Source of the DNA: Desulfobacterales bacterium
GTDB taxonomy: Bacteria > Desulfobacterota > Desulfobacteria > Desulfobacterales > UBA2245
Reading direction: 5' to 3'
DNA length: 64,000 nucleotides
Assembly (NCBI GenBank): GCA_040771865.1
Contig: JAXGZF010000003.1
Span: 62,001-126,000 of the forward strand
Shown here: piece by piece, positions 15,121-31,005 of the stretch
Layout: each line of letters opens with the position of its first letter
Position numbering within the stretch: position 1 is the stretch's first letter
Translations under genes and position numbers: made by a program
Notes under the pieces: generated by a model
Database searches by the model: none
What the model saw: the letters and a program-made list of their open reading frames with translations, nothing else
Told to the model about the DNA's origin: nothing

Positions 15121-16506
15121 TCAGCCGATCGGACACGAGGGCGCCAGATCCCGATCCAGATCGATTTCGTATTTTTTAATCTGCTTCCATATGGTGATCC
15201 GGCTGACGCCTAAGATTCGGGCCGCCTCGGATTGATTGCCCCCGGTTTGGCGAAGGGCCTCGATGAGCTTTTCGCGTTTTTGCATGCACGATGGATTCAG
15301 GCTGCAAACGGACCGGGCGCTGGTCTGAGGCGAAGCGATTTTCGGGGGCAGGTGATCGACGTCTATGGCTCCGCCGGGACAAAGGACAAAGGCGTATTCA
15401 ATGGCATTTCGAAGCTCCCGAATATTGCCGGGCCAGTGATGGTGAATCAGCCGGTCCATGGCTTCGGGGGTGATGCCGGAAATTTTTTTTCCGTTTTTGA
15501 CCGAGTTTCGCCCGATGAAGCTCTGAGCGATCAGGGGAATGTCCTCGCGCCGCTCGATCAGGGACGGACATTGAAGCGGAAACACGTTGATCCGGAAATA
15601 CAGATCCTCCCGGAACCCCCCCTGTTTGACCCGCGCTTCCAGATTTTTGTTGGTGGCGGTAATGATCCGCACATCCACCGGAATCGGCTTGTGGTCTCCC
15701 ACGCGTTCGATGGTTTTTTCCTCCAGCACCCGCAGCAGTTTGACCTGAATGGACAGGGGCATGTCTCCGATTTCGTCCAGAAAAATTGTTCCCTCGTGCG
15801 CCGCCTCAAAACGGCCGATGCGGTTCCGGTCGGCGCCGGTATATGCGCCCTTGACATGCCCGAACAGTTCGCTCTCCAGAAGATTTTCGTTCAGGGCCGC
15901 GCAGTTGACTTTTATATACGGCTTGTCCCTTCGGGCACCGGCCATGTGAACGGCCCGGGCGACCAGTTCCTTGCCGCTGCCGCTAGGACCCAGAATCATC
16001 ACCGGGGTATCGGTCTGGGCCACGTTTTCGATCAATTCAAAGAGGTTCTGCATGATTCCTGACCTGCCGATGATGCCGTGGTACCCGTCGTCCAGCTGAA
16101 AGGTTCTGCGCAGAGAATCGATTTCCTGCTGCTGCCGGATGCTTTCGGTGACGTCCGTCAGGGTTTCCACAGCGCCGATCACCTGCCCCTTCTCATCGTG
16201 AAGTACGGTTGCACTCTTGATCACATGGACGGTCCGGCCGTCCTTGTTGATGATCAGGCATTTCTTGTTCCAGACCACCCCTTCGGAATACAGGCTGCAC
16301 CATTCGGCGCCGGGGCCGGCGCCTTTGATCTTGCATCCGGTGCAGTTCAATATCCGGCAGGAACGGCCCATCAGTTCTTCGGCTGCATACCCCGTTATGC
16401 GTTCGGCGGCCGGGTTGACCGCCAGAATTTTTCCTCCTGGATCGACCACCATCAGTCCGTCCTGAAGGGTGTCAACGACTGTCTTCCAGTGTCTGGACAG
16501 ATCCAT
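15121..16506 (-). CDS. PAS-domain sigma54-dependent transcriptional activator (NtrC/Fis family)
   Basis: PAS N-terminus, GPSGSGKE Walker [31 protein letters not shown], Fis HTH. Confidence 0.95.
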
Positions 16507-16650
16507 GCGCAGGCGCTCCTTTGTGTTAACACGTTAACTTAACATTATTAACTTAAACAGCAGATCAAAAATATCAAGCAATAATTTTGAAAATTTCAAT
16601 AGCGCTTAAAAAAACAAGATGTTATGAATAAGTTGATACCTGCCTGAATT

Positions 16651-16667
16651 CTGGCATGCGGATTGCC
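16651..16667 (+). promoter_or_regulatory. Sigma54 (-24/-12) promoter
   Basis: CTGGCATGCGGATTGCC with exact GG-N10-GC spacing; divergent from a sigma54 activator. Confidence 0.8.
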
Positions 16668-16837
16668 ATAGATATGAAGCAGTCAGTCGGGGATGCAGTG
16701 AAATTTTCGACCCGCCGGGTGAAATGCGGTTCCCAAACCAGCGGGCCAAAGTCGAAAATACGGCTCCGTCCCGGCCGCTCCGACCGATATGATTTGATAG
16801 AGATATGAACCACATACAATGCAAAGGAGACTGCGCA

Positions 16838-17182
16838 ATGAAAAAATGGATTATGATCGCACTGACGTTTGTTTTTGTTTCCGGCGCCATCGGCATTGGG
16901 TTTGCCATGGAGCCGACAGGCAACGACCGCAAGGGTAAATACACTTATCGAAAGGTTTACAAGGCCTGCATGGCGCGTGGTGAGGTGAATTCCGAAACGC
17001 CACCGGTAAGCCCGATTGCCAAGACCCAGGCTGAATGGGCCCGGGTTTTTGAGGCAAAAGATTTCGCCGAGTTCGGTTGTGCGCCGGAGTGGAAAGCGCT
17101 CGCCGATGAGGATCTGCTCGATATTTTTACCTATCTGTACAACCATGCCTCGGATTCGCCTGCGCCCGCAACCTGCAAATAA
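16838..17182 (+). CDS. Small exported protein, cytochrome c-like but lacking CxxCH
   Basis: AAGGAG RBS, signal peptide, GNDRKGKYTYRK start typical of class I cytochromes c; VYKACM where a heme motif would be expected. Confidence 0.6.
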   Translation: MKKWIMIALTFVFVSGAIGIGFAMEPTGNDRKGKYTYRKVYKACMARGEVNSETPPVSPIAKTQAEWARVFEAKDFAEFGCAPEWKALADEDLLDIFTYLYNHASDSPAPATCK

Positions 17183-17263
17183 ACGTCGATCCTCAGAAGG
17201 GCGCGAAAATGTCAGGGCTGTTTTTATATCACTCCATGAACATTTTACATAAGGAAGGATCAT

Positions 17264-18388
17264 ATGAAACTTATAAAAGCAATCAAATGGACCATCGGAT
17301 TGACGCTGCTGCTGGCCGTCGGCATGGGATATGCCGCCCAGGAGAGCGCGGAACCGGGTGCCGCGGACGTTTCCTGGCGGTTTCACGATATCGTCGACAT
17401 GGAATTCGTGGCCCAGCACGTCAAGGTTCCAATGGACGAAAAAGTGATGATCATAGATGCCAGGCCCAGGCAGACCAAGTATGACGCAGGTCATATCCCC
17501 ATGGCGGTGAGCATTCCGGACACTCAGTTCGAGAAGATGACCGACAAATTGCCCAAGGATAAAAACGCGCTTTTGATTTACTACTGCGAAGGTCTGGACT
17601 GCCGGTTGAGCCACAAGTCCGCCAAAAAAGCCGAGGCGCTGGGTTACACCAACGTCAAAGTTTTTGCCGAAGGCTATCCGAAATGGATCTCGGTCAAGGG
17701 CCATTATCCTTCTGTTTCCGTAGAATGGGTGAAGAAACAGATCGACGCCAAGACCGATATGGTTCTGGTAGACTCCCGGCCCCGTCGCACCAAGTATGAC
17801 GCAGGCCACATTCCGACCGCCGTCAGCATTCCGGATTCGGAATTTGACAAACACATTGATCTGCTTCCACAGGACAAGGGTAAGCTGCTGGTTTTCTACT
17901 GCGAGGGCCTTCAGTGCAAGTTGAGCCACAAATCCGCGGCCAGGGCCATTGAAATAGGTTACACAAACGTGAAGGTTTTTTCCGAGGGATATCCGGCCTG
18001 GGCGGCCCATCTGAAGGCTCAGGGTCAGGCGCCTGTTACAGTGAAGGCCGGCAAGAACGAGGGAAGCATCGATCCGGCCGAATTCGAGAAAATGGTATCC
18101 GATAATCCGGAGAGCATTTACCTGGTTGACGTCCGGGATCCGGATGAATATGCGACCGGAAGTTTCAAGACCGCGGTGAACATCCCCATTGATGACCTGG
18201 AAAAGAAGCTGGATACGCTTCCGACCGACAAGCCTGTCGTATTTGTCTGCGGAACCGGCGCCAGAAGCGGAGAGGCTTATTACATGGTTCAGGATCTGCG
18301 GCCGGCCATGAAGAACGTCTACTATCTGGATGCGAAACTGACTTTTAAGAAGGACGGCTCCTTTGTCTTGAAGAAGCTTCCCGAATAA
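17264..18388 (+). CDS. Periplasmic triple-rhodanese-domain sulfurtransferase
   Basis: Signal peptide; DARP..YDAGHIP twice, DVRDPDEY; loops YCEGLDC, YCEGLQC, VCGTGARS. Confidence 0.9.
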   Translation: MKLIKAIKWTIGLTLLLAVGMGYAAQESAEPGAADVSWRFHDIVDMEFVAQHVKVPMDEKVMIIDARPRQTKYDAGHIPMAVSIPDTQFEKMTDKLPKDKNALLIYYCEGLDCRLSHKSAKKAEALGYTNVKVFAEGYPKWISVKGHYPSVSVEWVKKQIDAKTDMVLVDSRPRRTKYDAGHIPTAVSIPDSEFDKHIDLLPQDKGKLLVFYCEGLQCKLSHKSAARAIEIGYTNVKVFSEGYPAWAAHLKAQGQAPVTVKAGKNEGSIDPAEFEKMVSDNPESIYLVDVRDPDEYATGSFKTAVNIPIDDLEKKLDTLPTDKPVVFVCGTGARSGEAYYMVQDLRPAMKNVYYLDAKLTFKKDGSFVLKKLPE

Positions 18389-18451
18389 TGCGCCAGAAGA
18401 ATGCATTCCGGAAGTCAGGCTTCGGGATGCCAAACCACGAGGGGAATCGAC

Positions 18452-20077
18452 ATGATGCCAATCAGATGGATGCGCATTTTCTGCGTCGTGTTTGTTCTGT
18501 GCGCTCTAGGTGTCCTGGCGCACGCCGCGGATGACACCGCCGCCAGGTCGGCTCCTGGAAGGATCATGGCCCGGCAGGCAACTCAAGAGGTGCATGGCTG
18601 GACCACGGTGGATCACAGCCGGCTCGATGCACTAAAAAAACCTTTTGTCTCTGGAAAGCAGGTGACCGAGGCGTGCGTTTCCTGTCATTCCGAGGCGGCC
18701 TCCCAGTTTCATCAGACTATTCACTGGACCTGGCTCGGCACGGACCCGGATGCGGAAAAACGAATGGGCAAGGCCGGAGACTCGTTGAACAACTTTTGTA
18801 TTTCGGCCAACAACATGCAGGATAAAAGCTGCAACGCCTGTCATCCGAGCTGGAACGGGCAGGGGACCAAAGGCGAAGTCAACTGTCTGGTCTGTCACGG
18901 CCGGCAGCAAATCAACTGGACCGAGGCATTTGACGATCTGAACGCCTTTTCGGGCTCCGATGATCCGGAAGAGCAAACGATTGCGGCGGATATTCAGACC
19001 AATATTCAGCAGGCGGTCCAGAGCGTGATCCGCCCTGCCCGGGAAAACTGCGGATCGTGTCATTTCTATGGCGGCGGCGGCGACGGGGTCAAGCACGGAG
19101 ACCTGGATTCCTCGATTGCGCAGCCCCTCAAAACCCTGGATGTCCATATGGGTGTTGACGGAAAAAATTTCCAATGCACCCGGTGTCATACCACGATTCG
19201 GCACAATGTGGCCGGCCGGATTTATTCCCGGCCCGCAGCCGCGGATCGAAAAAGTCTGATCGAGGATGACCTTATCGCCAAAATCACCTGCGAGTCCTGC
19301 CACAGCGCAACGCCGCACAAGGCCGGTTCAAAGGCCAATGATCACACGGACAGAGTCGCCTGCCAGAGCTGCCACATTCCGCTGTTCGCCCGGCAGAATC
19401 CCACCAAGACCTGGTGGGACTGGTCCAAAGCCGGAATCCTTCAAGACGGCAAGAAATACAAGGAAAAGGGCGAGTTCGACAGAGATGTCTACATGACCAT
19501 CAAGGGCGAGATGAGATGGGAAAAAGATGTCAAACCCGAATACTTCTGGTTCAATGGCTCCATGAACACGCTGACGATCAAGGACTTCATCGATCCGGAA
19601 AAAATCGTTGCGGTCAGCGCACCGGTAGGAAGCCGGGAAGACAAGAACGCCCGCATATTCCCCTTTAAGATTCACCGGGGAAAACAGCCCTACGATACAG
19701 TCCAAAAGGTTTTGCTGGCCCCGATGCTGTCCGGAAAAGACGGATATTGGGAGACCCTGGACTGGCAGAACGCCATTGAAAAGGGCATGCAGGCCCTGAA
19801 CGCGTCTTATTCCGGATCATTTGATTTTGTGGAAACCACCTATGCGTTTCCCATCACCCATATGGTGGCGCCTAGAGACAATGTGGTTCGCTGCGCCGAG
19901 TGTCATACAGACCAGGGCGGACGGCTCGCCAGTCTGACCGGATTTTATATGCCCGGACGCGACAGGGCCGGCTGGATGGATACCTTGGGATGGCTCGCGG
20001 TTCTCGGGGCGTTGGCCGGTGTCGCCCTTCACGGACTGGGGCGGGCTTTTTCCCGCAGGAGCGGAAAGGAGAGCTGA
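18452..20077 (+). CDS. Octaheme c-type cytochrome, tetrathionate reductase (Otr) family
   Basis: Eight CxxCH motifs (CVSCH, CNACH, CLVCH, CGSCH, CTRCH, CESCH, CQSCH, CAECH), NNFC, GGGGDGVKHGDLDSS, C-terminal TM helix. Confidence 0.92.
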   Translation: MMPIRWMRIFCVVFVLCALGVLAHAADDTAARSAPGRIMARQATQEVHGWTTVDHSRLDALKKPFVSGKQVTEACVSCHSEAASQFHQTIHWTWLGTDPDAEKRMGKAGDSLNNFCISANNMQDKSCNACHPSWNGQGTKGEVNCLVCHGRQQINWTEAFDDLNAFSGSDDPEEQTIAADIQTNIQQAVQSVIRPARENCGSCHFYGGGGDGVKHGDLDSSIAQPLKTLDVHMGVDGKNFQCTRCHTTIRHNVAGRIYSRPAAADRKSLIEDDLIAKITCESCHSATPHKAGSKANDHTDRVACQSCHIPLFARQNPTKTWWDWSKAGILQDGKKYKEKGEFDRDVYMTIKGEMRWEKDVKPEYFWFNGSMNTLTIKDFIDPEKIVAVSAPVGSREDKNARIFPFKIHRGKQPYDTVQKVLLAPMLSGKDGYWETLDWQNAIEKGMQALNASYSGSFDFVETTYAFPITHMVAPRDNVVRCAECHTDQGGRLASLTGFYMPGRDRAGWMDTLGWLAVLGALAGVALHGLGRAFSRRSGKES

Positions 20078-20080
20078 CCC

Positions 20081-20737
20081 ATGGCTAAAAATCTGATCCC
20101 GATTTATCTGTATACCCGATACGAGCGGTTCTGGCACTGGTTTCAAGCGGCAATGATCGTCGTTCTTCTGATCACCGGTTTTGAGGTACACGGGCTTTTT
20201 CGCCTGCTCGGTTTTAATCTTGCCGTCAAGGTGCATAATTTTGTGGGAATTACCTGGCTGATCGCTTTTGCATTCTTTGTATTCTGGGTGTTCACCACTG
20301 GAGAGTGGCGCCAGTATGTTCCCACCACGCAAAAAATGTTCGCCGTTGTGCGCTACTACGCGTACGGCATATTCCGCGGCGAGGCTCACCCGGTTCCAAA
20401 GCGTAAAGACGCCAAGCACAATCCGCTCCAGCGCCTGGTCTATCTGATGCTGGCCGCCACGCTGCTTCCGATTCAGATGCTCTCCGGGTTTCTTTACTGG
20501 GGATACAATTCCTGGGCCGACTGGGGACTGGACTGGCTCGGCCTCGAACCGCTTGCCCTGCTGCACATGGCCGGCGCTTTTTCCATTCTGGTCTTTCTGG
20601 TGACGCATGTGTATATGACCACCACGGGCCACAGTATTTTTGCACATACCAAGGCCATGATTACCGGTTGGGAAGAAATAGAGGAAGGCGAGATTCAGGA
20701 CTGGGAAAGGTCCGTCAAGCCGACCTGCGAAACCTGA
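20081..20737 (+). CDS. Membrane cytochrome b subunit (PhsC/hydrogenase cyt b-like)
   Basis: ERFWHW, ITGFEVHG, KHNPLQRL, LH..GAF...HVYMTTTG; four TM segments. Confidence 0.88.
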   Translation: MAKNLIPIYLYTRYERFWHWFQAAMIVVLLITGFEVHGLFRLLGFNLAVKVHNFVGITWLIAFAFFVFWVFTTGEWRQYVPTTQKMFAVVRYYAYGIFRGEAHPVPKRKDAKHNPLQRLVYLMLAATLLPIQMLSGFLYWGYNSWADWGLDWLGLEPLALLHMAGAFSILVFLVTHVYMTTTGHSIFAHTKAMITGWEEIEEGEIQDWERSVKPTCET

Positions 20738-20766
20738 CGTCAGCCAAAGCGCGCCATGCAAATTCG

Positions 20767-20802
20767 AGGGCCGGTTCTTCAGAAAAGGACCGGCCCTTGT
20801 TT
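20767..20802 (+). terminator. Probable intrinsic terminator
   Basis: AGGGCCGGTTCT-loop-AGGACCGGCCCT followed by TGTTT. Confidence 0.55.
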
Positions 20803-20839
20803 ATGGTTAGGGTTGATGTCGTCCTTCCGAAGAAAAAGC

Positions 20840-20884
20840 TTGACAAATCTGTTGCACAACAATACCGTTGTACAACAGATTTGT
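20840..20884 (+). promoter_or_regulatory. Promoter overlapped by an 18-bp inverted repeat operator
   Basis: TTGACA 20840-20845, TACCGT 17 nt later; arms ACAAATCTGTTGCACAAC / GTTGTACAACAGATTTGT (1 mismatch, 6-nt spacer). Confidence 0.7.
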
Positions 20885-20918
20885 TGTGTATATTAACCCA
20901 GCAATGGGAGGCCTATTC

Positions 20919-21677
20919 ATGGAACTCACCCAGTCCCAGCTTGAGAGCGTCAGAAACCAGATTCCGGAACCCTATAATACACCACAGAGATTTGGCGAAT
21001 TTATCCGTCAGAAGGTTCAGCCGCACAAAACGCTTTGTACGTTGGTCATGGCGGAGATCGACAAGATTTTGGCGCCTTTGATCCAGCAGTATGAAAAACG
21101 TTTCTTTTGCAGAATCGACGACAGCCACCAGCTAAAGACGCCGGAAAGCATTATCGATAAGATTTTTCGGCCTCCCAAGAAAAATTCAAAGGCCGGAGAA
21201 CCCATACCGTCCATATATGATCTGAAAAATTTTGATAGGACCATGACCGATCTTGCGCGGTTTCGAATTGTCTGTAATTTTTTGAGCGACGTCAAGATCG
21301 TTGAAGAAGCCATCTATAAATCCGAAAAGTTGAATCAGAAATTTAACATCAAACACGAATCCACTATCGATCAGAGGCCAAAATTGCGCAAATCCGGTGA
21401 ACGGTCCGTGAAATTTGTGCTGGAATATAAAAATCAACCCGGGTTGTTCCTGGAAATCCAGGTCATGACCCAATTGCAGGAGGCATGGGACAAAAAGGAT
21501 CATTTTCTGGTTTATGAAACCCGACGCCGTGATCCGGAAAGCGATGAGGAAAATTTTTCGGATTTCCTGGATGCCAAGATGAATGCCATGTCTGAACTTC
21601 TCTACGTGGCGGATAATTACTTTGAAGATCTGAGAAGTTCCCGCGAAGAACTTGGAAAAAACAAGGGGGGCCGATGA
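20919..21677 (+). CDS. RelA/SpoT-domain small alarmone synthetase-like nucleotidyl/pyrophosphotransferase (divergent)
   Basis: LKTPESIIDK, TDLARFRIVCNFLSDV, SGERSVK, LEIQVMTQLQEAW..DH.LVYE; GGAGG RBS before ATG 20919. Confidence 0.85.
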   Translation: MELTQSQLESVRNQIPEPYNTPQRFGEFIRQKVQPHKTLCTLVMAEIDKILAPLIQQYEKRFFCRIDDSHQLKTPESIIDKIFRPPKKNSKAGEPIPSIYDLKNFDRTMTDLARFRIVCNFLSDVKIVEEAIYKSEKLNQKFNIKHESTIDQRPKLRKSGERSVKFVLEYKNQPGLFLEIQVMTQLQEAWDKKDHFLVYETRRRDPESDEENFSDFLDAKMNAMSELLYVADNYFEDLRSSREELGKNKGGR

Positions 21678-23218
21678 AACTTCGAAAAGAAACATTCCAT
21701 ACAGGGCATTTGCTGGCTTTTATATCCAAACAGGACGCAACCGATAATTTTTCAATATTTTTTCCAGTCCAGGGACTTGACCAATTCGACAGCCTTTTGA
21801 AAATTACCCGGGGATTTGAGCGTTGCTTTGATCATTACCGGGAGCGATTTGAGTTTGTTGAATACTCCATTGCGGATTTTGGGCGAATTGAAGAGGCCTT
21901 TCAGAATGTTGACAGAAAACGCCTTGTCGTCTTTGACCAATCCAGCTTTCTGGACAGTGATCTTCAGTTTGTCGAACGCCTTGGAAGCATTGTGCTTGAA
22001 AGGCTTTCCGGACAATTTGATCCGATTTTTCCGAACATTGTGACTGGTGCAAATGCAACCGGATCAGATTTCTATGACCGCCGGCAGACCATTGAGAAAA
22101 TCTTTGAACTTTTGGATGAGGGAAAAAACATCCTGTTCAGAGCGCCCCGGCGTTATGGGAAAAGCAGTCTCCTGAAACATATCGCAAAGTATCCGCCAGC
22201 CAGCTGGCATGTCTGCTATATCGACCTTGAAGGTGGAAAGTCCTGCGAGGATTTTGTGGAGCAGATATTAAAAGGGCTGCTATTTAACCCTTCATGCAGT
22301 TATTGTCTCCCGGATGAAATTTCCGTCCAGAAAATCGGCGAAAAGTCAGAGATGGAAAAAATGGATTTTATCCGGAAAGAGCGGAACAAGATCCGAAAAA
22401 GTTGGAAATCTTATGCAGAAAATCTTTTTAAATCGGTGAATAACAGGGCCGGTGATAAAAAGATTCTCCTTGTTTTAGACGAGGTGTCTTTTCTCATTGA
22501 AGACGTTCTGGGGCATCCTGAAGGAAACAAACAAGAGGTCCAGGAACTTCTTGTTTGGTTTCGGGAGATTCGGGAGCAAATGGATCGTGTTCAATTGATT
22601 CTTTCAGGCTCTGAACATCTTCCGACGTTTTTAAAAGGTTATGAAATTGATGAAGGCCTTCTGGCTGATCTAATACCGGTGAGCCTGGATCTTTTCGATG
22701 CGCAGACAGCCGAAGATTTCATTTTTTTGACGCTGGCCGGTCAGAAAATCGGGGTTGTACGGGAAGAGATCAATCATATGCTCGGCTTAATCGGCAAACC
22801 GATACCGTATTTTCTTCAGCTCTTTCTGGATGCGATTTGTCGTGTTTGTCGCGAAAAACATCAGAATCTTACCTGTGATGATCTTACGGAGATTTATTAT
22901 CAGAATTTATTGGGGGCGGACAGCAAGCGCTATTTTGAATCCATTCAAAGGCAACTCGACCGCTACCGCCGGTTTGGCGTTAAAGGCAGTTCGGCTGCCT
23001 TGCGCATTTTAAATGAGCTTGCCAATACAGAAACGCGATCCATAGATCAGTTGCAAGTCCTTTGGCAGGTGGAAACCGGATCAGTCGAGCGATTTGAAGT
23101 CATGATGGGAATTTTGCAGGATGATTTTTACATCCGGATAGAAAACAATAATACTGCCTCCTTTGACAGCAAGCTTTTAAAGGACTGGTGGAACCGGCAC
23201 GTCCTGCCTTCAGCTTAG
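21674..23218 (+). CDS. STAND-like/AAA P-loop ATPase with ~118-aa N-terminal extension
   Basis: DFYDR, Walker A APRRYGKSS, Walker B LLVLDE, LILSGS, PYFLQ, C-terminal LLKDWW; ATGA overlap with the upstream gene. Confidence 0.85.
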   Translation: MKLRKETFHTGHLLAFISKQDATDNFSIFFPVQGLDQFDSLLKITRGFERCFDHYRERFEFVEYSIADFGRIEEAFQNVDRKRLVVFDQSSFLDSDLQFVERLGSIVLERLSGQFDPIFPNIVTGANATGSDFYDRRQTIEKIFELLDEGKNILFRAPRRYGKSSLLKHIAKYPPASWHVCYIDLEGGKSCEDFVEQILKGLLFNPSCSYCLPDEISVQKIGEKSEMEKMDFIRKERNKIRKSWKSYAENLFKSVNNRAGDKKILLVLDEVSFLIEDVLGHPEGNKQEVQELLVWFREIREQMDRVQLILSGSEHLPTFLKGYEIDEGLLADLIPVSLDLFDAQTAEDFIFLTLAGQKIGVVREEINHMLGLIGKPIPYFLQLFLDAICRVCREKHQNLTCDDLTEIYYQNLLGADSKRYFESIQRQLDRYRRFGVKGSSAALRILNELANTETRSIDQLQVLWQVETGSVERFEVMMGILQDDFYIRIENNNTASFDSKLLKDWWNRHVLPSA

Positions 23219-23249
23219 AGCAGCAAACTCTGAAAGGAAAACAGCATCA

Positions 23250-26200
23250 ATGGAATCCTTGTATCCCTATACTCCCAGAAAATCGAGTTTTGAAGATTTA
23301 AAACACACTTTTGTGGCCCGGCAGGTGCTGCTCGATGAACTGCTGGAAGCCGTTTCTACGCAAAGCGGGATGGACTCGCTCCAGCATTGGATGATTCTGG
23401 GCGCCAGGGGAATGGGAAAGTCTCATCTCATCACCATGGCCTATCATATGGTAAAGCGCGATGAGAAGCTATCGCAACAATGGCTTCCGGTGCTGATGAA
23501 TGAGGAAGAACATGGCGTTTTTTCATTACATACTTTGTTTATTCGCATATTGACCAAGCTTGGCGAGGAGCTTTCAGACGCTGATAACAAAGCCTCTGAA
23601 GCGATTATGCAGTTTCTCGACAAGTTAAGGGATTCGGGGGGAACTCAGGATGAAATCCTTGAGAACGTTGTGGCTTACCTCAAGGATTTTGTGAAAAATT
23701 CCGGCAAAAGATTGCTGGTGTTGCTGGAAAACGCCGATGAACTTTTGACCCGGTATCTTCCCCGCAAAAACGATATCAAGAAATTCCGCCATATCCTTCA
23801 GAACGACGCCTTTCTCATGCTGATCTGCACATCGCCGACTCTTTTCGAAGGAATCAGCAGCAGCAAGGCGCCGCTATATGATTTTTTCCGCATCCGCCAG
23901 CTGGACCTTTTAAACTACGAATCGTCGGTGGATTTGCTGAACCGGTGGGCAGAACTGGAGGGAAAATCAGAGGCAAAGCAAAAGCCTTCCCTGCGTTTTC
24001 GGGAAAACGATTACAGGCTGCGCGTACTCTATCATCTGACCGGCGGAAATCCCCGGATTCTCCTGTTTTTGTACATGGCCATCAGCGGGCAGGACGGGAT
24101 TCAAAGCGCTGTGGATACCTTCAGCAAGCTGCTTGAAGAAGATCTGAGCAGCTACTATCTGAGCCGGATGCGCGATCTTTCCAATCAGGTTCAGCCCATT
24201 GTGGTTGCCCTTGCGGAAAGCTCAGGGAGTCTGACCCAGACAGAAATTGCCAGGCTTACGTTTTTGCCGGCCAAGAGCATTGGAACGGCAATGGTGCGAT
24301 TGGAACAAGACGGCTTAGTCAGAGCAGTATCCGAGAAGAAAGGCAAAAACACCCTCTATGCCTTGACGGATCAGTTGTTTCGACTGTGGCATCAGTGGCG
24401 TACGCGCACCGATGAGCGTCGGGTCATCAAAGCGGTGGTGGAATTTCTGGCCGTTTGGTACCGCAAAAGACAGCTCATTCAATGGTCCGGCGATGAGGGA
24501 ATATCAGGGGCTTATTGCAAGGAAGCCTTGGCCTTTCGTGAAAGTCAGGGTTTCCGAAAGGTAATAGAACCGTTTTGCCGGGATAGCGAGAAATATATTG
24601 ATGAACATCTTGCTCGGAAAGATTATCCGGCGGTTTTTGATGCCTTAGATCTTTTGAAAGAATATGGGGTTTCGGTCGCAGATTTGTGGAAAAGCGCATT
24701 TGCGAGAGTGAAACAAGATAAAGGAATTGACGATGCTGAAGAATATTTCCGGCAGCGCATAAAAAAAGATGAAAGCGATCTTGAAGCGATTTTGGGCTTG
24801 GGACGGCTTCTGATTGCGAAAGAGAATTACGCAGGCGCTGAGGAGGCTTTTAGCCGGGCCGTGGAACTGTCCCCGGAAGATGGGTCCTTATGGGGTAATT
24901 TAGGGCTGGCGCGAGGGCGTCAGGAGAATCACGCAGGCGCTGAGGAGGCTTTTAGCCGGGCCGTGGAACTGTCCCCGGAAGATGGGTCCTTATGGGGTAA
25001 TTTAGGGCTGGCGCGAGGGCGTCAGGAGAATCACGCAGGCGCTGAGGAGGCTTTTAGCCGGGCCGTGGAACTGTCCCCGGAAGATGGGTCCTTATGGGGT
25101 AATTTAGGGCTGGCGCGAGGGCGTCAGGAGAATCACGCAGGCGCTGAGGAGGCTTTTAGCCGGGCCGTGGAACTGTCCCCGGAAGATGGGTCCTTATGGG
25201 GTAATTTAGGGCTGGCGCGAGGGCGTCAGGAGAATCACGCAGGCGCTGAGGAGGCTTTTAGCCGGGCCGTGGAACTGTCCCCGGAAGATGGGTCCTTATG
25301 GGGTAATTTAGGGCTGGCGCGAGGGCGTCAGGAGAATCACGCAGGCGCTGAGGAGGCTTTTAGCCGGGCCGTGGAACTGTCCCCGGAAGATGGGTCCTTA
25401 TGGGGTAATTTAGGGCTGGCGCGAGGGCGTCAGGAGAATCACGCAGGCGCTGAGGAGGCTTTTAGCCGGGCCGTGGAACTGTCCCCGGAAGATGGGTCCT
25501 TATGGGGTAATTTAGGGCTGGCGCGAGGGCGTCAGGAGAATCACGCAGGCGCTGAGGAGGCTTTTAGCCGGGCCGTGGAACTGTCCCCGGAAGATGGGTC
25601 CTTATGGGGTAATTTAGGGCTGGCGCGAGGGCGTCAGGAGAATTACGCGGGTGCTGAGGAGGCTTTTAGCCGGGCCGTGGAACTGTCCCCGGAAGATGGG
25701 TCCTTATGGGGTAATTTAGGGCTGGCGCGAGGGCGTCAGGAGAATTACGCGGGTGCTGAGGAGGCTTTTAGCCGGGCCGTGGAACTGTCCCCGGAAGATG
25801 GGTCCTTATGGGGTAATTTAGGGCTGACGCGAGTGTCTCAGGAGAATTACGCAGGTGCTGACGAGGTTTATAGCAAGGCCGTGGAGTTGTTCCCGAAAAA
25901 TAAGTATTATTGGGGAGGCTTGGGATTTGCGCGAGTGTCTCAGGAGAATTACGCAGGTGCTGAGGCGGCTTATAGCAAGGCCGTGGAGTTGGCACCGGAG
26001 GATGCGTATTTGTGGAGAATGTTGGGCGTGGCGCGATCGGATCAGGAGGATTACGCAGGTGCCGAGGAGGCTTTTAGCAAGGCCGTAGCCTTGGCTCCGG
26101 AGAATGCGATATTTTGGAGCAATCTGGGCGAGGTGCGATTGGCTTTAGGTGATAGTATGGGGGCTGAAAAGGCATTGATAAAGGCGGTGGAATTAAATCC

Positions 26201-26639
26201 GACGCCCAAAACAAAGGCTCGTATCGGGTTATTGCTATCTTTTATAAACGTAAAAAATCAGGATAACGGTTTATTTAAGAAGAACGTGAGCGAAGCGGTT
26301 TTTATTTTAGATCAGACCGATGCGTTAAAAGAAGAAGATCAGCAGGCTGTTATTGGAGATATTTTTGACGTCCTGACAGCTGTTTTAAATCAGAGCAATA
26401 TCAATGCCATTCGCACTTATCTCGCAGGCATCCGAGAGGCATCTGAAGATCTTGGACGGATATTCAAGCCGTTTGATTATGTTTTGGATTACTTTGATGC
26501 GCTTTTTGCAGCGCAAGCCGATAAAAAAGCAACCGCCGATCGCGCCCAGCGAGTGCTGGACAGCGTGGCCAGCGAAATCAAGGGGCCGGTTGAAGGTATG
26601 ATCGAAAAAATAAAAAATCGCCTGAACCGTTCTGATTAA
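23250..26639 (+). CDS. STAND-like ATPase - winged HTH - TPR array protein
   Basis: FVAR, Walker A GARGMGKS, variant Walker B LVLLENAD, TGGNPR (STAND GxP), wHTH LTQTEIARLTFLPAKSIGTAMVRLEQDGLV, about 14 TPRs. Confidence 0.88.
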   Translation: MESLYPYTPRKSSFEDLKHTFVARQVLLDELLEAVSTQSGMDSLQHWMILGARGMGKSHLITMAYHMVKRDEKLSQQWLPVLMNEEEHGVFSLHTLFIRILTKLGEELSDADNKASEAIMQFLDKLRDSGGTQDEILENVVAYLKDFVKNSGKRLLVLLENADELLTRYLPRKNDIKKFRHILQNDAFLMLICTSPTLFEGISSSKAPLYDFFRIRQLDLLNYESSVDLLNRWAELEGKSEAKQKPSLRFRENDYRLRVLYHLTGGNPRILLFLYMAISGQDGIQSAVDTFSKLLEEDLSSYYLSRMRDLSNQVQPIVVALAESSGSLTQTEIARLTFLPAKSIGTAMVRLEQDGLVRAVSEKKGKNTLYALTDQLFRLWHQWRTRTDERRVIKAVVEFLAVWYRKRQLIQWSGDEGISGAYCKEALAFRESQGFRKVIEPFCRDSEKYIDEHLARKDYPAVFDALDLLKEYGVSVADLWKSAFARVKQDKGIDDAEEYFRQRIKKDESDLEAILGLGRLLIAKENYAGAEEAFSRAVELSPEDGSLWGNLGLARGRQENHAGAEEAFSRAVELSPEDGSLWGNLGLARGRQENHAGAEEAFSRAVELSPEDGSLWGNLGLARGRQENHAGAEEAFSRAVELSPEDGSLWGNLGLARGRQENHAGAEEAFSRAVELSPEDGSLWGNLGLARGRQENHAGAEEAFSRAVELSPEDGSLWGNLGLARGRQENHAGAEEAFSRAVELSPEDGSLWGNLGLARGRQENHAGAEEAFSRAVELSPEDGSLWGNLGLARGRQENYAGAEEAFSRAVELSPEDGSLWGNLGLARGRQENYAGAEEAFSRAVELSPEDGSLWGNLGLTRVSQENYAGADEVYSKAVELFPKNKYYWGGLGFARVSQENYAGAEAAYSKAVELAPEDAYLWRMLGVARSDQEDYAGAEEAFSKAVALAPENAIFWSNLGEVRLALGDSMGAEKALIKAVELNPTPKTKARIGLLLSFINVKNQDNGLFKKNVSEAVFILDQTDALKEEDQQAVIGDIFDVLTAVLNQSNINAIRTYLAGIREASEDLGRIFKPFDYVLDYFDALFAAQADKKATADRAQRVLDSVASEIKGPVEGMIEKIKNRLNRSD
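24822..25841 (+). repeat. Ten tandem 102-bp (34-aa TPR) repeats
   Basis: Units start every 102 bp from 24822; seven appear identical (24924-25637); diverged TPRs continue to about 26200. Confidence 0.97.
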
Positions 26640-26863
26640 AGCGGCTCAGATGTTGCGGTTCAAAATCTTGCGACGCTTGCGGGGGCAACCGACTTGTAGG
26701 CGAATATCCCTTTGACAGTCCCAAGCATTCTATTTTATAGAATTGACGTTTGACGGCTTCGTAAAAAGCCAATTTCTGCTGCAAGTCCATCTTTGCCAGG
26801 CTGTAGAAAAGCAAGAATCAGCCTGTTGAAACCGGCAACCCATTTTGAACAAGGAGTGTGATC

Positions 26864-27766
26864 ATGGCCATACATCAGCCCATGAAGGATCTGTATCTGG
26901 TGGATCTGGACCAGTCTCTGGAAGGGTTTCGAAATTTTATCAGCAGCTGGGTGCTCAAGCGCCAGGGGAAAACCATTGTGGTGGACCCCGGCCCCAGGGC
27001 GACCATTCCGGTTTTGACGGAAGCCCTCAAAAAGCTGGATGTGAAAAAAATCGACTATATTCTCCTGACCCATATTCATATCGACCATGCCGGTGGAACC
27101 GGGCTGTTGATGAAGGATTATCCGGACGCCCAGGTGATCTGCCACGACAAGGGAATCAAGCACATGGTCGAACCGGCAAAGCTCTGGGCCGGGTCGCTCA
27201 AGGTGCTGGGCAAGGTGGCGGAGGCATACGGAGAGATTGCGGCCATTCCCAAGGACAACATTCAATATCAGCAGAGCGTCCAGGCCGGTCCCCTTGAGTT
27301 CGAGGTTCTGGAAACGCCGGGCCATGCCGTGCATCACATCTCGTTCAGGCTCGATGATCTTCTCTTTGCCGGAGAGGTGGCCGGCGTCAGTTATCCATTT
27401 GATGACGGCCTGTACATCCGGCTGGCCACGCCGCCGGTTTTCATCTACGAGGTGTTTAAAAGTTCCATCGAGAAGGTCGCGGCCCTGAATGTCTCACATT
27501 TCTGCTTCGGCCACTACGGATACCGCCGGGACGTCAAGGCGATCTGCGATACGGCCCTCAATCAGCTCGACAACTGGATGGCGGTGGTGGAAAAACATCA
27601 CAAGGCCGGAACGGAACCGTTTGCGGAAGCCGTTTTTGACGAGGTGTTGAAAAACGACCGGGGGCTTTCCCTGTTTTCAAAGCTTCCCGCGGATGTTCAG
27701 CAGCGCGAGAAATACTTCTGCTTCAACAGCTTTAAGGGCATGCGGGATTATTTCAAGGAAAAATAG
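26864..27766 (+). CDS. MBL-fold metallo-hydrolase
   Basis: VVDPG, THIHIDHAGG, TPGHAVHH, CFGHYG; AAGGAG RBS. Confidence 0.9.
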   Translation: MAIHQPMKDLYLVDLDQSLEGFRNFISSWVLKRQGKTIVVDPGPRATIPVLTEALKKLDVKKIDYILLTHIHIDHAGGTGLLMKDYPDAQVICHDKGIKHMVEPAKLWAGSLKVLGKVAEAYGEIAAIPKDNIQYQQSVQAGPLEFEVLETPGHAVHHISFRLDDLLFAGEVAGVSYPFDDGLYIRLATPPVFIYEVFKSSIEKVAALNVSHFCFGHYGYRRDVKAICDTALNQLDNWMAVVEKHHKAGTEPFAEAVFDEVLKNDRGLSLFSKLPADVQQREKYFCFNSFKGMRDYFKEK

Positions 27767-27787
27767 GACGATTTTGTATGCAGTCAG

Positions 27788-27818
27788 AAAGCCGGCCGGA
27801 CCTTTCCCGGTCGGCTTT
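27788..27818. terminator. Bidirectional hairpin between convergent genes
   Basis: AAAGCCGGCCGG-loop-CCGGTCGGCTTT. Confidence 0.6.
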
Positions 27819-29361
27819 ATTTTTCGGAAGTGTCGGCAATCGGGTGAAGCTCCCAGATGGGAAGATCGGCTTCGCCCTGTCTTTTTTCTGCCCGCCGGGT
27901 TTCTTCCCGGTGAACGCTCAGCGAAAGATAGATCAGGGCGGCCCGCACCATCTTGAGGATCTGCAGGGTCTTGGCCTGAAAATCCGTGATCGATACCGAA
28001 AATACGAGCTGCCCCTTGGCCGGCTTGGCGGCCGACGTTGAATCCTTTTGCAGCTTGAAATACCGGTGCTCCATATAGTTTCGAATGCCGTGAAGTTTTC
28101 GGGCCTCGGGTTCAAGGGCCTCTTCGAATCCGGGTTTGGCCTCGTAAAGATCCTTGCACAGCCAGTACAGCCCCCGCAGCGGCCAGTTCTGAAGATCCGC
28201 CAGCTGGGGACGCAGGGTTTTGACGCTGCCCGTGGGTTCGTGCCACAGGGTTCTGGCGTTGATCTTCTTGTCCGGAACGTCCAGGCTCAGATAGTTTTTC
28301 AGGAAAAACGCGATCTTGTCAAAAATGGCATAGGCCACGCGAAAGGCGATCTTGACCTTTTCGGCGGCAAGGCCGTAGACCGGATGGTCCAGGGTGTCGT
28401 ACAACAGCACGTTCCGGTCCGAAAAATGGGTCTGGTCGCAGATGATTCCCTCATAATACAGCCATCGGGCCGATACGAACTCCTGTTTCATCAGGTTGAA
28501 AAATCCGTGATAATCCGGCGCGTCTTCCTGTCTGACCACCATGGCCGGCAGGGACAGGCTGTCCGAGGCCCCCGTCCGGCCGGGCGTCAGGTCGTTGAGC
28601 GGATTGATGAACAGTCGGTTTTCCAGACACCAGGACCGGTATTCCGCTTCCGGTTGCGCCGCTTCGGGATCGCCCCCATCGAGGTCCGGAAAGGCTGCCG
28701 AATGCCGGTCAAACACGGACCGAAGATCGAAGAGGTATTCGGAAAACAGGGCTCTGGCCGATGGGTTCAGGTCCTGCTTCAGGGCCTGGTCCAGGTCTTC
28801 CATGGCCTTTCGAAGAAAAATCATGGCCTGGGTTTCGTCATATAGGCTGTGGGCATAGTGTATCCGCACATACCCGCGGTTTCCCCGGGCCAGGGCAAAG
28901 CCGGGGTTTTCCGACAGGGCCCGGTCCCAGTAAGCCAGTGCCTCGACAAACCGGCCCACATGGCTCATGGTTGCGGCCAGGTTCGCGTAAACCGGGCATG
29001 GATTGATTTTGCCCCGCTCCGAAGCCGCCATGGCCTGATAGACGTTAAGGGACCGGCGAAGCCAGATCATCTGCTTTTCGACCGCCTCGTCGTCCCAGCG
29101 CCAGAGATCCGTGTCGTTCCGGATCGACAGTTTATGCAGGTTGCCCCAGATATTGGAAACATGATAATAGAAGATCGTCTTTTGCGCGTCGGTCAGGGGC
29201 CGTTCCGCCAGCTGATCGGCCAGAAGGAGCGCCTGCCTGAGGCCCTTTTCTTTCCTGGCCTCAAAGGCGGCGTCGGCCATCAGGCCGATATGGGCCACGG
29301 CCTGATCCGTATTCAGGGCGGAAATATTTTTGATGCTTACAAGTTTCTGGTATGAATTCAT
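27817..29361 (-). CDS. TPR + LA2681-like HEPN domain protein (predicted RNase)
   Basis: TPR (YANLAATMSHVGRFVEALAYWDRAL), YRSWCLENRLFINPLND, FNLMKQEFVSARWL, NWPLRGLYWL, RxxxxH motif RNYMEH; start set at ATG 29361. Confidence 0.82.
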   Translation of the reverse strand: MNSYQKLVSIKNISALNTDQAVAHIGLMADAAFEARKEKGLRQALLLADQLAERPLTDAQKTIFYYHVSNIWGNLHKLSIRNDTDLWRWDDEAVEKQMIWLRRSLNVYQAMAASERGKINPCPVYANLAATMSHVGRFVEALAYWDRALSENPGFALARGNRGYVRIHYAHSLYDETQAMIFLRKAMEDLDQALKQDLNPSARALFSEYLFDLRSVFDRHSAAFPDLDGGDPEAAQPEAEYRSWCLENRLFINPLNDLTPGRTGASDSLSLPAMVVRQEDAPDYHGFFNLMKQEFVSARWLYYEGIICDQTHFSDRNVLLYDTLDHPVYGLAAEKVKIAFRVAYAIFDKIAFFLKNYLSLDVPDKKINARTLWHEPTGSVKTLRPQLADLQNWPLRGLYWLCKDLYEAKPGFEEALEPEARKLHGIRNYMEHRYFKLQKDSTSAAKPAKGQLVFSVSITDFQAKTLQILKMVRAALIYLSLSVHREETRRAEKRQGEADLPIWELHPIADTSEK

Positions 29362-29526
29362 CTTTTTCGGCAACCCGCAGCGTGTGTATTTTACCCGTCC
29401 AATGTACCCGGATGCCGAATTCGGCGCAAGCCCAATTGTGGAAGGATGATCCGGCCGTTTCGGGTTTTTGAATTTTGCTGGTTGTTTATTGAGTGATACA
29501 GAAAGGCGGTTTTGATGCGTTCCGGA

Positions 29527-30171
29527 ATGAAAACCTGCATCTTTGACGTTAACGGGGTCTTGATCGACTCCAATACGGCCAACGCTCAAGCCATGGCCGA
29601 GGCCTTCACCGACCGGCCGGACCTGCGGGAAAAGATCGCCGGCATCTACCTGACCCTGACCGGCATCGACCGGGGGACCAAGATACGGCACATTCAGGAG
29701 CGTGCCATCGGGACGCCTTTCGAGGAAGGCGAATTCGAGCTGAGGTGGCAGCGGTTCAAGTCCCTTTCCGGCGCGAGCATGCGCAGAGCCGGGCTGACCC
29801 GTGGCTGCAAGGCGGTTCTGGATGAGCTGGGACGCCGGGGGATCCGGCGCGTGGCCCTTTCTAACACGCCCCTGGAAGAGCTTTCAAAAACCGTGGCCGC
29901 CAAAGGAATCAACGCATCGCTTGACGTGGTGCGCGGCGGCGGGGACTGGTCGAAAAGCGAATCCCTGCGCCGGCTTTTAAAAGAATTTGAAATGGACCCG
30001 GATCATTGCGTGTTTGTCGGAGACGGCCGCGGGGATCTGACGGCGGCTCAGGATTCAGGGGTCTTTTTTGTGGGCATCGATCCGAACACGGGGGAATTTG
30101 ACGGCCGAAGCGGTTTTGACGGCCCTTACCCCGCCCTGGCGGACTGGGCCAGGGAATGGAAGATCCTCTGA
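29527..30171 (+). CDS. HAD-superfamily hydrolase
   Basis: IFDVNGVLIDS, ALSN, K, FVGDGRGD motifs. Confidence 0.85.
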   Translation: MKTCIFDVNGVLIDSNTANAQAMAEAFTDRPDLREKIAGIYLTLTGIDRGTKIRHIQERAIGTPFEEGEFELRWQRFKSLSGASMRRAGLTRGCKAVLDELGRRGIRRVALSNTPLEELSKTVAAKGINASLDVVRGGGDWSKSESLRRLLKEFEMDPDHCVFVGDGRGDLTAAQDSGVFFVGIDPNTGEFDGRSGFDGPYPALADWAREWKIL

Positions 30172-30348
30172 AACGATTTGAGCAGACGGCGAAGCGGAAG
30201 CACTTTCATTTTCCCGGCGGTTGAAAAACAAGAACCCGGTTGTCGGGCAAGGCGTGCGGAGATGCGACAAGCGCGGCATATTCAAGCATTTGTGAGCGTT
30301 GGTGAGAGTCGCGCAACGCTGCATGGCGGCCCTGGCGCAGTTTTTCAG

Positions 30349-31005
30349 TTAAAACCCCAGATCCTCGTTGATCAGCACCACATGGATCCGTTCCCTGGGA
30401 AATGATTTTTCCGTAATCGTCCAGGTGTTGCAGATGCGGTCCGGGCTGCTGCAGCCCATGCAGCGGCCTGTTTTCATGCACGGGGTTTTGAAGTTCACAT
30501 GCCGGATCGCATTCACCGGCGCGGCATAGGATCGAATCCGCTTCATCGCCGCATCGACATCGGCAACGAGCTTGTTTCTGCCGGCCAGTATCACGACATG
30601 TTTCGGACCGAAGGCGATGCCCCCCACGCGGTTGCCGATCATATCCAGATTCACAAGCTGCCCCGCCTCCGTCACCGCGTTGCTTCCCGTAAAAAACAGG
30701 TCGACCCGCAGGGCCTGCCTGCGGCGTTCGATTTTTTCTTCAAAGGAAAGATCCTGTGCAAAGGTTTCCAGCACTCTGATGTGAGGATTTCGCCGGATTT
30801 CATTCAGAACCCCGGTGGCGTGAAGGGTGATCGAATCTCCCCATGAAACGCTTTGAACCGGAACATGGGGCAGAATCTGTTCTATGACGATGCCTCTGGC
30901 GTCGTCGCGGTTTTCGGCAAGCCAGGCGCCGAAGTGATTGTCTTTCAGCGCTCGAATGCATCTTTCAAGCCGCAGCTTCCAGTATGTGTTCAGATCAGTC
31001 TTCAT
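30349..31005 (-). CDS. LUD-domain (lactate utilization LutC/YkgG-like) protein
   Basis: FTGSNAVTEAGQLVNLDMIGNRV, FGPKHV, GRNKLV, TPCMKTGRCMGCSSPDRIC. Confidence 0.85.
   Translation of the reverse strand: MKTDLNTYWKLRLERCIRALKDNHFGAWLAENRDDARGIVIEQILPHVPVQSVSWGDSITLHATGVLNEIRRNPHIRVLETFAQDLSFEEKIERRRQALRVDLFFTGSNAVTEAGQLVNLDMIGNRVGGIAFGPKHVVILAGRNKLVADVDAAMKRIRSYAAPVNAIRHVNFKTPCMKTGRCMGCSSPDRICNTWTITEKSFPRERIHVVLINEDLGF

Follow-up and report, generated by a model that had tools for sequence, protein, structure and literature searches.

The 64-kb window examined here (64,000 nt of contig JAXGZF010000003.1, Desulfobacterales bacterium assembly GCA_040771865.1; all coordinates are those of the window) carries three same-strand genes, g1, g2, and g3, which together occupy 20919-26639. 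They encode a small alarmone-synthetase-fold enzyme, an ATPase, and a second NTPase with a winged helix and a tetratricopeptide repeat (TPR) array. It is near certain that these genes constitute a real, conserved, and mobile cassette, and the trio is an obligate unit. The cassette is probably a conflict system, and a slight balance of probability favors the more specific reading of a mobile, self-repressed three-gene conflict cassette, in which a sensor/helper pair resembling nucleotide-binding leucine-rich repeat (NLR) proteins controls a detached pyrophosphokinase effector. The cassette and its genes are as follows.

20753-26818, no strand assigned: presence/absence stretch with the promoter, the three genes, and short tails; 373 bp stand in its place in the congener G001
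20919-21677, plus strand: g1, 252-aa small alarmone-synthetase-fold pyrophosphokinase (Pfam, alignment, AlphaFold2 model, Foldseek)
21674-23218, plus strand: g2, 514-aa ATPase_2-type AAA+/signal transduction ATPase with numerous domains (STAND)-like ATPase (Pfam, AlphaFold2 model)
23250-26639, plus strand: g3, 1129-aa AAA_16-type NTPase with a winged helix, a TPR array, and a C-terminal helical domain

The open reading frame (ORF) calls and the sequence bear out the arrangement given in the initial annotation, in that the g1 stop and the g2 start share an ATGA and a 31-nt gap separates g2 from g3, and the Pfam matches support its anatomy of a RelA/SpoT-like enzyme followed by two STAND-like ATPases, the second with a winged helix-turn-helix and TPRs. 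Its description of the operon as richer in AT than the flanks holds for 21000-24000 (GC content 0.43-0.47 versus 0.51-0.58 in the flanks) but not for the TPR repeat region (0.58-0.62 over 25000-26000). As it had also stated, no alarmone hydrolase or small antitoxin gene adjoins the trio at the window locus; cytochrome b561 is encoded upstream and a metallo-beta-lactamase-fold protein downstream. Both flanking genes also occur in the cassette-less G001, and the metallo-beta-lactamase-fold gene was rejected as a fourth component on this ground.

Loci were gathered through g1 alone, 11 from one-genome-per-species contigs and 75 from metagenomes, and the 86 loci were searched in six frames with profiles of all three proteins. 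A g1-family gene (E < 1e-25) was found in 76 of the 86 loci, corresponding to 62 clusters at 90% identity. Seven contigs end too soon after g1; in the others, which have at least 150 nt of room, g2 always lies directly downstream (69 of 69). The g3 gene comes next in 44 of 45 loci with room, the exception being L022, where a frameshifted g2 reaches the contig end. The trio proposed from the window thus recurs elsewhere, with a gene spacing of -29 to +36 nt. Eight distant RelA/SpoT loci (E ~1e-10) have neither g2 nor g3. Pairwise identities of g1, g2, and g3 co-vary (Pearson 0.95-0.97; 378 pairs from 28 complete loci), which shows co-inheritance only because related loci are non-independent. 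Damaged copies were also seen: L084 and L085 (7773-11273), which complete the ten loci outside the 76, are decayed, with g1 fragments in two frames joined to distal g3 and no g2; in L070 both g1 and g2 are truncated and g3 is split; and L073 has a frameshifted g1.

By their labels, the hosts of the cassette span Desulfobacterota-type metagenome-assembled genomes (MAGs), Bacteroidota, Acidobacteriota, and Myxococcota. The 11 genome loci, which are labeled as Deltaproteobacteria-type MAGs, Marinifilum, Solibacteraceae, Bryobacteraceae, Thermoanaerobaculia, Archangium, Myxococcus, and a Lentisphaeria-labeled MAG, all differ in their flanks. A search of 61 genomes of the window's order recovered g1 from the window's own genome only; it was not found in G001, which is 99% complete and belongs to the same genus. 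G001 matches the window at 93% over 16000-20752 and 26819-30183 with 373 bp in between, and the cassette lies between the terminator of the cytochrome b561 gene and the promoter of the metallo-beta-lactamase-fold gene. No target duplication was seen at the indel junctions in comparison with G001, and there is no recombinase gene within the indel. The locus L001 has the cassette at the same site, where the flanks are 93.2% identical to those of the window at the DNA level, the cassette 87.1%, and its 3' part 81.3%.

The terminator hairpin (20765-20799) and the metallo-beta-lactamase-fold gene promoter (26700-26760) that frame the cassette are both kept in G001. Located at 30205-30350 is a repeat of ~129 bp with terminal inverted ends. 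The window's own genome contains it in at least 41 copies (83-88% identical) and G001 in more than 40, of which one coincides exactly with the cassette-less site. The repeat folds no better than shuffled sequences do (z 1.32), and it looks like a miniature inverted-repeat transposable element or a repetitive extragenic palindromic-type element.

Expression of the trio appears to be governed by signals that travel with it, which lie in the following order.

20840-20845, plus strand: -35 hexamer TTGACA, a perfect consensus read in the sequence
20843-20888, plus strand: operator array with GTTGNNCAAC boxes at 20851-20860 and 20867-20876 and a half box at 20883-20888
20863-20868, plus strand: putative -10 hexamer TACCGT, by our own reading, 17 nt past the -35 hexamer in the spacer of boxes 1 and 2
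20906-20911, plus strand: Shine-Dalgarno sequence of g1, GGGAGG, ahead of the ATG at 20919

This promoter was omitted by the consensus promoter scan because TACCGT fits only three of six positions; better -10 hexamers are found at the equivalent place in L010 and L003. An 18-nt inverted repeat (20843-20860 and 20867-20884) follows TTGACA, and the GTTGNNCAAC boxes, which have a 16-bp period, are equally readable as tandem CAAC-N6-GTTG palindromes with half-sites one helical turn apart. The exact double box GTTGNNCAAC-N6-GTTGNNCAAC occurs once in the 64-kb window and in none of 100 shuffles. TTGACA stands immediately 5' of the first box in 11 of 12 loci compared, after which come two to four boxes. 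Paired boxes (at least two, with one mismatch allowed, exactly 16 bp apart and within 200 nt of g1) were found upstream of g1 in 52 of the 61 loci with sufficient upstream sequence, compared to 0 of 1199 control windows from the same loci, and the remaining nine have one box. The TTGACA hexamer, the inverted repeat, and the conserved box pairs confirm that the operon has its own promoter and operator, as first annotated. Because the operator motif accompanies the cassette across phyla, its binding protein should be encoded by the cassette. The MarR-like winged helix of g3 may be the operator-binding domain, and the C-terminal winged helix of g2 is less conserved than this region of g3. Just upstream of the cassette promoter, L001 has an extra ~117 nt with a perfect 12-nt inverted repeat.

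Both Pfam (RelA_SpoT, 35 bits against a cut-off of 27) and structural comparison place g1 in the SYNTH-domain fold of small alarmone synthetases. The AlphaFold2 model of g1 (predicted local distance difference test [pLDDT] score of 88.7) has only helices at residues 206-249 beyond the catalytic core, and Foldseek matched it to RelP/RelQ (E 1e-9; target-normalised template modeling [TM] score 0.71-0.78) and to CapRel (7ztb, 9e-9). A profile of the g1 family matched RelP/RelQ at 3.6e-13 to 9e-9 and CapRel at 3.7e-3 over g1 residues 70-188. As the genome also holds one long RelA/SpoT homologue, g1 is an accessory enzyme. Across 22 g1 members down to 33% identity, D111 (21249-21251), E179 (21453-21455), Q181, and K73 are invariant and K81 is kept in at least 90%; the D111 and E179 regions align to the DIAG.RI and EIQIRT motifs of RelP/RelQ. 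These positions presumably supply the catalytic glutamate and the basic residues of the donor-site helix. The complete or nearly complete preservation of the Mg-binding aspartate, the catalytic glutamate, and the basic donor-site helix across the 22 members argues for retained catalysis.

The acceptor-base position of g1 differs from that of RelP/RelQ. The catalytic aspartate of alarmone synthetases is named in PMC11782079, according to which a conserved G-loop tyrosine (Y128 in FaRel2) touches the acceptor base in alarmone synthetases and toxic small alarmone synthetases (toxSAS). In g1 this position is E161 (21399-21401), as judged from SGERS aligned with G-Y-R-S of RelP/RelQ, and the g1 family has glutamate here in at least 90% of members, histidine in 2 of 22, and never tyrosine or phenylalanine. 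From the residues kept and replaced, catalysis is probably retained in g1 with the acceptor bound in another way.

The g2 protein comprises an N-terminal domain of its own, an ATPase core, and a winged helix.

21674-22018, plus strand: N-terminal alpha/beta domain of g2, residues ~1-115, system-specific
22142-22165, plus strand: Walker A APRRYGKS, invariant in the family form APRRxGK[ST]
22478-22483, plus strand: Walker B DE, invariant in the family form hhhhDE
23042-23200, plus strand: C-terminal winged helix, residues 457-509, from the secondary structure of the AlphaFold2 model, aligned with the whole of 2qen/2fna

The Pfam matches of g2 (ATPase_2, AAA_14, and AAA_22) are all near the cut-offs. 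Its AlphaFold2 model (pLDDT 89.1) was searched with Foldseek, and residues 118-513 were used for a structural search with VIA-align, in which the best matches were two archaeal ATPase_2 structures, 2qen (PAB2304; Z 21.6) and 2fna (SSO1545; Z 20.1), which are also the best sequence matches of this part (profile E 1e-10). Both lack the N-terminal domain, and the titles of the two PDB entries state no function. To our knowledge, no partner genes have been described for PAB2304 and SSO1545. The next structural neighbors were plant NLR resistosomes (Z 16), ORC/Cdc6 (15), TnsC (14), Avs5, MalT, Avs3, and NAIP/NLRC4, with MuB also among them; Z was 11.5-16.3 for Avs3, Avs5, plant NLRs, and NAIP/NLRC4. 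A TniB/TnsC-like role in transposition was considered and rejected, as the TniB match is weak (5e-4) and no cassette has a transposase. The N-terminal domain had 14 matches in 1.84 billion representative proteins, all of which are g2-like proteins or fragments except for one protein of 871 aa. It has no sequence match in the PDB, its best Pfam match is at chance level (E 0.02), and the Atlas gave nothing above 0.82. The domain is also missing from P0208 and P0209.

In g3, an NTPase module is followed by a winged helix and a long repeat array.

23310-24062, plus strand: NTPase module, residues 21-271; Pfam AAA_16 5e-7 and ATPase_2 2.9e-5, both below curated cut-offs
24201-24335, plus strand: MarR-like winged helix-turn-helix, residues 318-362; Pfam MarR_2 2.5e-4
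24729-26210, plus strand: TPR array, ~14 units of 34 aa; TPR_1 5.5e-91 in 12 stretches
24822-26086, plus strand: tandem 102-bp DNA repeat, 12.4 copies
26211-26636, plus strand: C-terminal region past the repeats, without a family match; 81% identical to L001 and 29% to L002

The AAA_16 score of the window protein is 30.8 against a Pfam cut-off of 32.6, and AAA_16 was found in 14 of 14 g3 orthologues. The module has the Walker A GARGMGKS (family form GxRGxGK[ST]), an unusual conserved Walker B of the form hhhhEN, and a GGNPR motif. A winged-helix profile of 20 g3 orthologues, with many invariant residues, matches MarR-family regulators in the PDB (E 6e-5). The initial annotation had treated the two ATPases as a pair; both are STAND-like, but paralogy at the sequence level did not hold, as g2 (ATPase_2-type) and g3 (AAA_16-type) have no significant similarity (BLASTP E 0.35).

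The C-terminal part of g3 is variable. TPR families were found in 10 of the 14 orthologues and no repeat was detectable in the other 4, and complete g3 proteins range from 640 aa to ~1490 aa. Seven of the 102-bp units in the window are identical at the DNA level, and neighboring units differ by 1 and 3 nt. The L001 array comprises 4.7 diverged units, and the g3 of L001 falls short of that of the window by 272 aa (eight units). Over the first 1059 aa of g3, L047 and L048 share 95% identity but differ in length by 129 aa, or three 43-aa units. Collapse of repeats in short-read assembly (the L001 and L048 contigs) could mimic part of these copy-number differences. Tandem Repeats Finder located arrays of 102 nt or 129 nt in the g3 genes of 23 loci. 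The 102-nt arrays (34-aa TPR) occur where g1 is more than 50% identical to that of the window and the 129-nt arrays (43 aa) where it is 34-42% identical. The arrays reach 18 copies, and the identity among units is 95% in L057; examples are located at 5028-7393 in L054, 4540-5789 in L057, and 11675-13070 in L010.

Homologues of the two ATPases also occur without g1. Genes similar to g2 and without its N-terminal domain were found in seven plasmid records, four of which were examined (L092-L095; plasmids of Clostridium estertheticum, C. tagluense, Moraxella osloensis, and Segatella copri). The plasmid ATPases match the g2 profile over positions 122-507 (E 1e-55 to 1e-62), and the overlapping downstream gene is g3-like in all four (profile E 1e-66 to 1e-73 in three, with a short gene in Segatella; BLASTP 3e-41). 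Like the window locus, these plasmids have a gene for a g2-like ATPase followed by a g3-like gene for an NTPase with a winged helix, and in part TPRs, and they have promoter palindromes; unlike it, they have no g1-like ORF, no g2 N-terminal domain, and other operator motifs. Defense genes are neighbors of two of the four pairs: the Moraxella pair adjoins Qat genes, a PD-T4-6-like kinase, and a PRTase-like gene, and the Segatella pair adjoins a WYL regulator, an IetA-like ATPase, and a DUF262 gene. PADLOC gave no match for any of the four pairs, which may represent an unrecognized two-gene family. Thus g1 and the N-terminal domain of g2 appear together or not at all, which is the best available, albeit indirect, sign that g1 is coupled to the two ATPases through this domain.

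The most economical reading of these features would be a wiring of sensor, helper, and effector. In the resting state, the winged helix of one ATPase, most likely that of g3, would occupy the tandem CAAC-N6-GTTG operators that cover the promoter and hold expression down. The g3 protein would act as the sensor, with its variable TPR repeats recognizing a foreign (phage or plasmid) protein. The g2 protein would be a helper or adaptor that assembles with g3 in a nucleotide-dependent manner and whose N-terminal domain may hold or regulate g1. Once released or activated, g1, as a separate and toxic effector, would use ATP to pyrophosphorylate an acceptor that it binds non-canonically, arresting the cell. 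We infer an immune role, toxicity of g1, and contacts among the proteins and with the DNA. The conflict or immune reading draws on the mobility of the cassette, its faster divergence than its flanks, the variability of the sensor, the genes around the g1-less pairs, and earlier examples of toxSAS and of STAND immunity.

Several findings weigh against this reading. By profile search, g1 is nearer in sequence to the non-toxic RelP/RelQ than to CapRel, and with glutamate in place of the G-loop tyrosine, canonical activity of g1, and hence its toxicity, cannot be assumed. The g1 family is near-neutral (isoelectric point 5.2-8.9), and this non-basic character speaks weakly against a tRNA target. 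No relatives of g1 were found in viral contigs (0), nor on plasmids at E 1e-8, and the ATPases can function in the absence of g1, as is evident from the g1-less pairs. A credible defense neighbor was present at 6 of 27 non-redundant trio loci (SoFic, HEC-01A/B, PDC-S05, a type IV restriction enzyme, AbiEi, and a DruE-like helicase), as a raw count, and the cassettes of L002 and L003 stand among housekeeping genes. These 27 are the trio loci whose flanks contain ORFs (119 in total, each at least 150 aa long) that were left once 14 redundant loci had been dropped. Four PADLOC matches were not counted as defense: the RtcR/PspF-like match of L001, which is a sigma-54 activator by Pfam, the pVip match of L002, which is a generic radical SAM match, the RT-protease match of L025 (1e-11), and the partial RT_UG29 match of L038. 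Finally, winged helices together with an operator that covers the promoter would also fit a plain role as transcription factor.

This last point leads to the best of the alternatives, which we nevertheless regard as unlikely, namely that the trio is a physiological module. In this case, g2 and g3 would be a pair of MalT/LAL-like STAND transcription factors that sense an endogenous protein or metabolite via the TPRs and regulate their own promoter and perhaps others with the same boxes, while the small synthetase makes an alarmone-like nucleotide for stress, dormancy, or development. The conserved operator over the promoter and the MarR-like winged helix of g3 would be explained, as would the presence of MalT among the structural neighbors of g2, the closeness of g1 to housekeeping-type RelP/RelQ, the 21 of 27 loci without defense neighbors, and the occurrence in developmentally complex groups such as Myxococcota. 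On the other hand, a physiological module would hardly be expected to have so patchy a distribution (1 of 61 relatives) with an empty site in a congener, to diverge faster than its flanks, to shift its repeat copy number between near-identical cassettes, or to have g1-less homologous pairs among defense genes. In addition, since the double box occurs nowhere else in the 64-kb window, to which this search was limited, no regulon is evident.

Less probable still is a selfish addiction cassette, in which g1 would be a toxin held by the N-terminal domain of g2, the complex would repress its own synthesis, and post-segregational killing would occur without sensing of an invader. The tight overlaps, including the ATGA, the autoregulatory palindromes over the promoter, the toxSAS precedent for RelA/SpoT-fold toxins in such operons, and the decayed copies (L070, L073, and L084/L085) are all in keeping with addiction. 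However, neutralization would require far less than a pair of large NTPases plus a variable repeat sensor reaching ~1000 aa, the sensor varies like a recognition domain, g2/g3 pairs exist without g1, and no relative of g1 was found on a plasmid. It is very improbable that g1 is only a nucleotide-binding or regulatory subunit (e.g., one that senses ATP or alarmone levels and whose acceptor binding is impaired) of an acting ATPase pair, which might assemble on DNA in the manner of ORC/TnsC and stop an invader from replicating, because the Mg-binding aspartate, catalytic glutamate, and basic donor-site helix of g1 are invariant or nearly so in the 22 members down to 33% identity, even though the loss of the acceptor-base tyrosine, the g2/g3 pairs without g1 (plasmid pairs that are only partly annotated), and the presence of ORC/Cdc6, TnsC, and MuB among the structural neighbors of g2 would accord with it.

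The conflict cassette favored here resembles several known systems in part. The literature describes toxSAS and CapRel as anti-phage or toxin-antitoxin effectors. Like toxSAS (FaRel, FaRel2, PhRel, and PhRel2) and CapRel, the cassette has a small RelA/SpoT-fold pyrophosphokinase in a tight, patchily distributed operon with partner genes, and g1 shares their fold and keeps the donor-site and catalytic residues. In contrast, their partner is a small antitoxin, a hydrolase, or a fused pseudo-zinc-finger, whereas the partners of g1 are two large NTPases; the G-loop residue is tyrosine in theirs and glutamate in g1, and the profile match is weak (CapRel 3.7e-3). With 252 aa, compared to 372-373 aa for CapRel chains, g1 does not have the fused C-terminal pseudo-zinc-finger antitoxin domain of the CapRel type.

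With Avs1-5 and bNACHT proteins, g3 shares the order of NTPase, winged helix, and repeat sensor as well as a C-terminus that diversifies rapidly. It is a STAND NTPase with a C-terminal repeat sensor as in Avs/AVAST, although AAA_16 is below the cut-off in the window protein. The cassette differs in that the effector is a separate gene, two unlike NTPases stand in place of one polypeptide, and the Walker B of g3 is hhhhEN. The single effector-NTPase-sensor polypeptide of Avs/AVAST is not found here, as no effector domain precedes the NTPase of g3, which starts near residue 21, and the separate g1 is the sole enzyme. No NACHT family is among the Pfam matches of g2 and g3, for which the nearest families, as judged by Pfam, are ATPase_2 and AAA_16.

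In sensor/helper NLR pairs (NAIP-NLRC4 and those of plants), one NTPase carries the recognition repeats and a second without repeats relays the signal. The cassette is similar to these in logic only; there is no specific homology beyond the fold, and the pairing would follow here from gene linkage. A RelA nucleotidyltransferase is a rare effector in vWA-MoxR ternary conflict systems according to Kaur et al. (2020; PMC7159879), and the cassette is like these in being a multi-gene, NTP-dependent conflict system, if it is one, with a RelA-type domain; neither the vWA nor the MoxR family is among the Pfam matches of g1, g2, and g3. Alarmone synthetases are also among the effectors linked to bacterial NACHT proteins, as stated in the supplementary discussion of the preprint by Kibby et al.

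No named system matches the cassette, in agreement with the first annotation: PADLOC 2.0 gave only remote single-protein matches to the cassette proteins (PDC-S33 1.4e-9 and PDC-S27 7.7e-7), and NCBIfam gave no specific match. The match to PDC-S33 covers profile positions 37-174 of 349 and is thus not full-length, and the best among the 22 members is 5.1e-10. Full-text literature searches, which did not reach the 'nucleotide-centric systems' paper of Burroughs et al. (2015), found no description of this trio, and none of the papers listed in one of them combined toxSAS and STAND terms. The term RelA is absent from the text and seven supplements of a 2026 STAND survey. The three-part, self-regulated design with two unlike ATPases looks undescribed, but the theme of a STAND NTPase with an alarmone-synthetase effector is already in print.

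A bolder reading, which we regard as doubtful, is that the cassette represents the first prokaryotic NLR-like sensor/helper ATPase pair, with a new adaptor domain and a detached RelA/SpoT-fold enzyme that has a new nucleotide or target, alongside a wider plasmid defense family without the enzyme. The acceptor site of g1 would have been rebuilt by the change from tyrosine to glutamate, and so in that reading a new nucleotide or a new kind of pyrophosphorylated target would be expected. If the cassette is immune in function, it would provide a modular bacterial NLR-like immunity made of separate sensor, helper, and effector genes, a counterpart to the heteromeric NLR pairs of animals and plants, and with the altered acceptor-base residue the product or target of g1 may be new chemistry for RelA/SpoT-fold enzymes. 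If it is a signaling module instead, it would bring about alarmone-type control by an unusual route, one that is traded horizontally. The conserved operator is an immediate handle for biochemistry, and the g1-less pairs point to a broader two-gene family missed by the PADLOC models.

The surroundings of the cassette in the window have features of their own. Upstream, an operon at 17264-20737 encodes a triple-rhodanese protein, a 558-aa multihaem cytochrome c with Cytochrome_cB and MtrC/MtrF-like domains, and the cytochrome b561, and this operon is 93% conserved in G001 and L001. Downstream, on the minus strand at 27817-29691, a gene encodes a protein of 624 aa without a PADLOC match, which has a weak TPR match and a strong LA2681-like HEPN domain (1.2e-69). 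This HEPN_LA2681-TPR gene is not part of the cassette because it is common to G001, and it may be a separate conflict gene.

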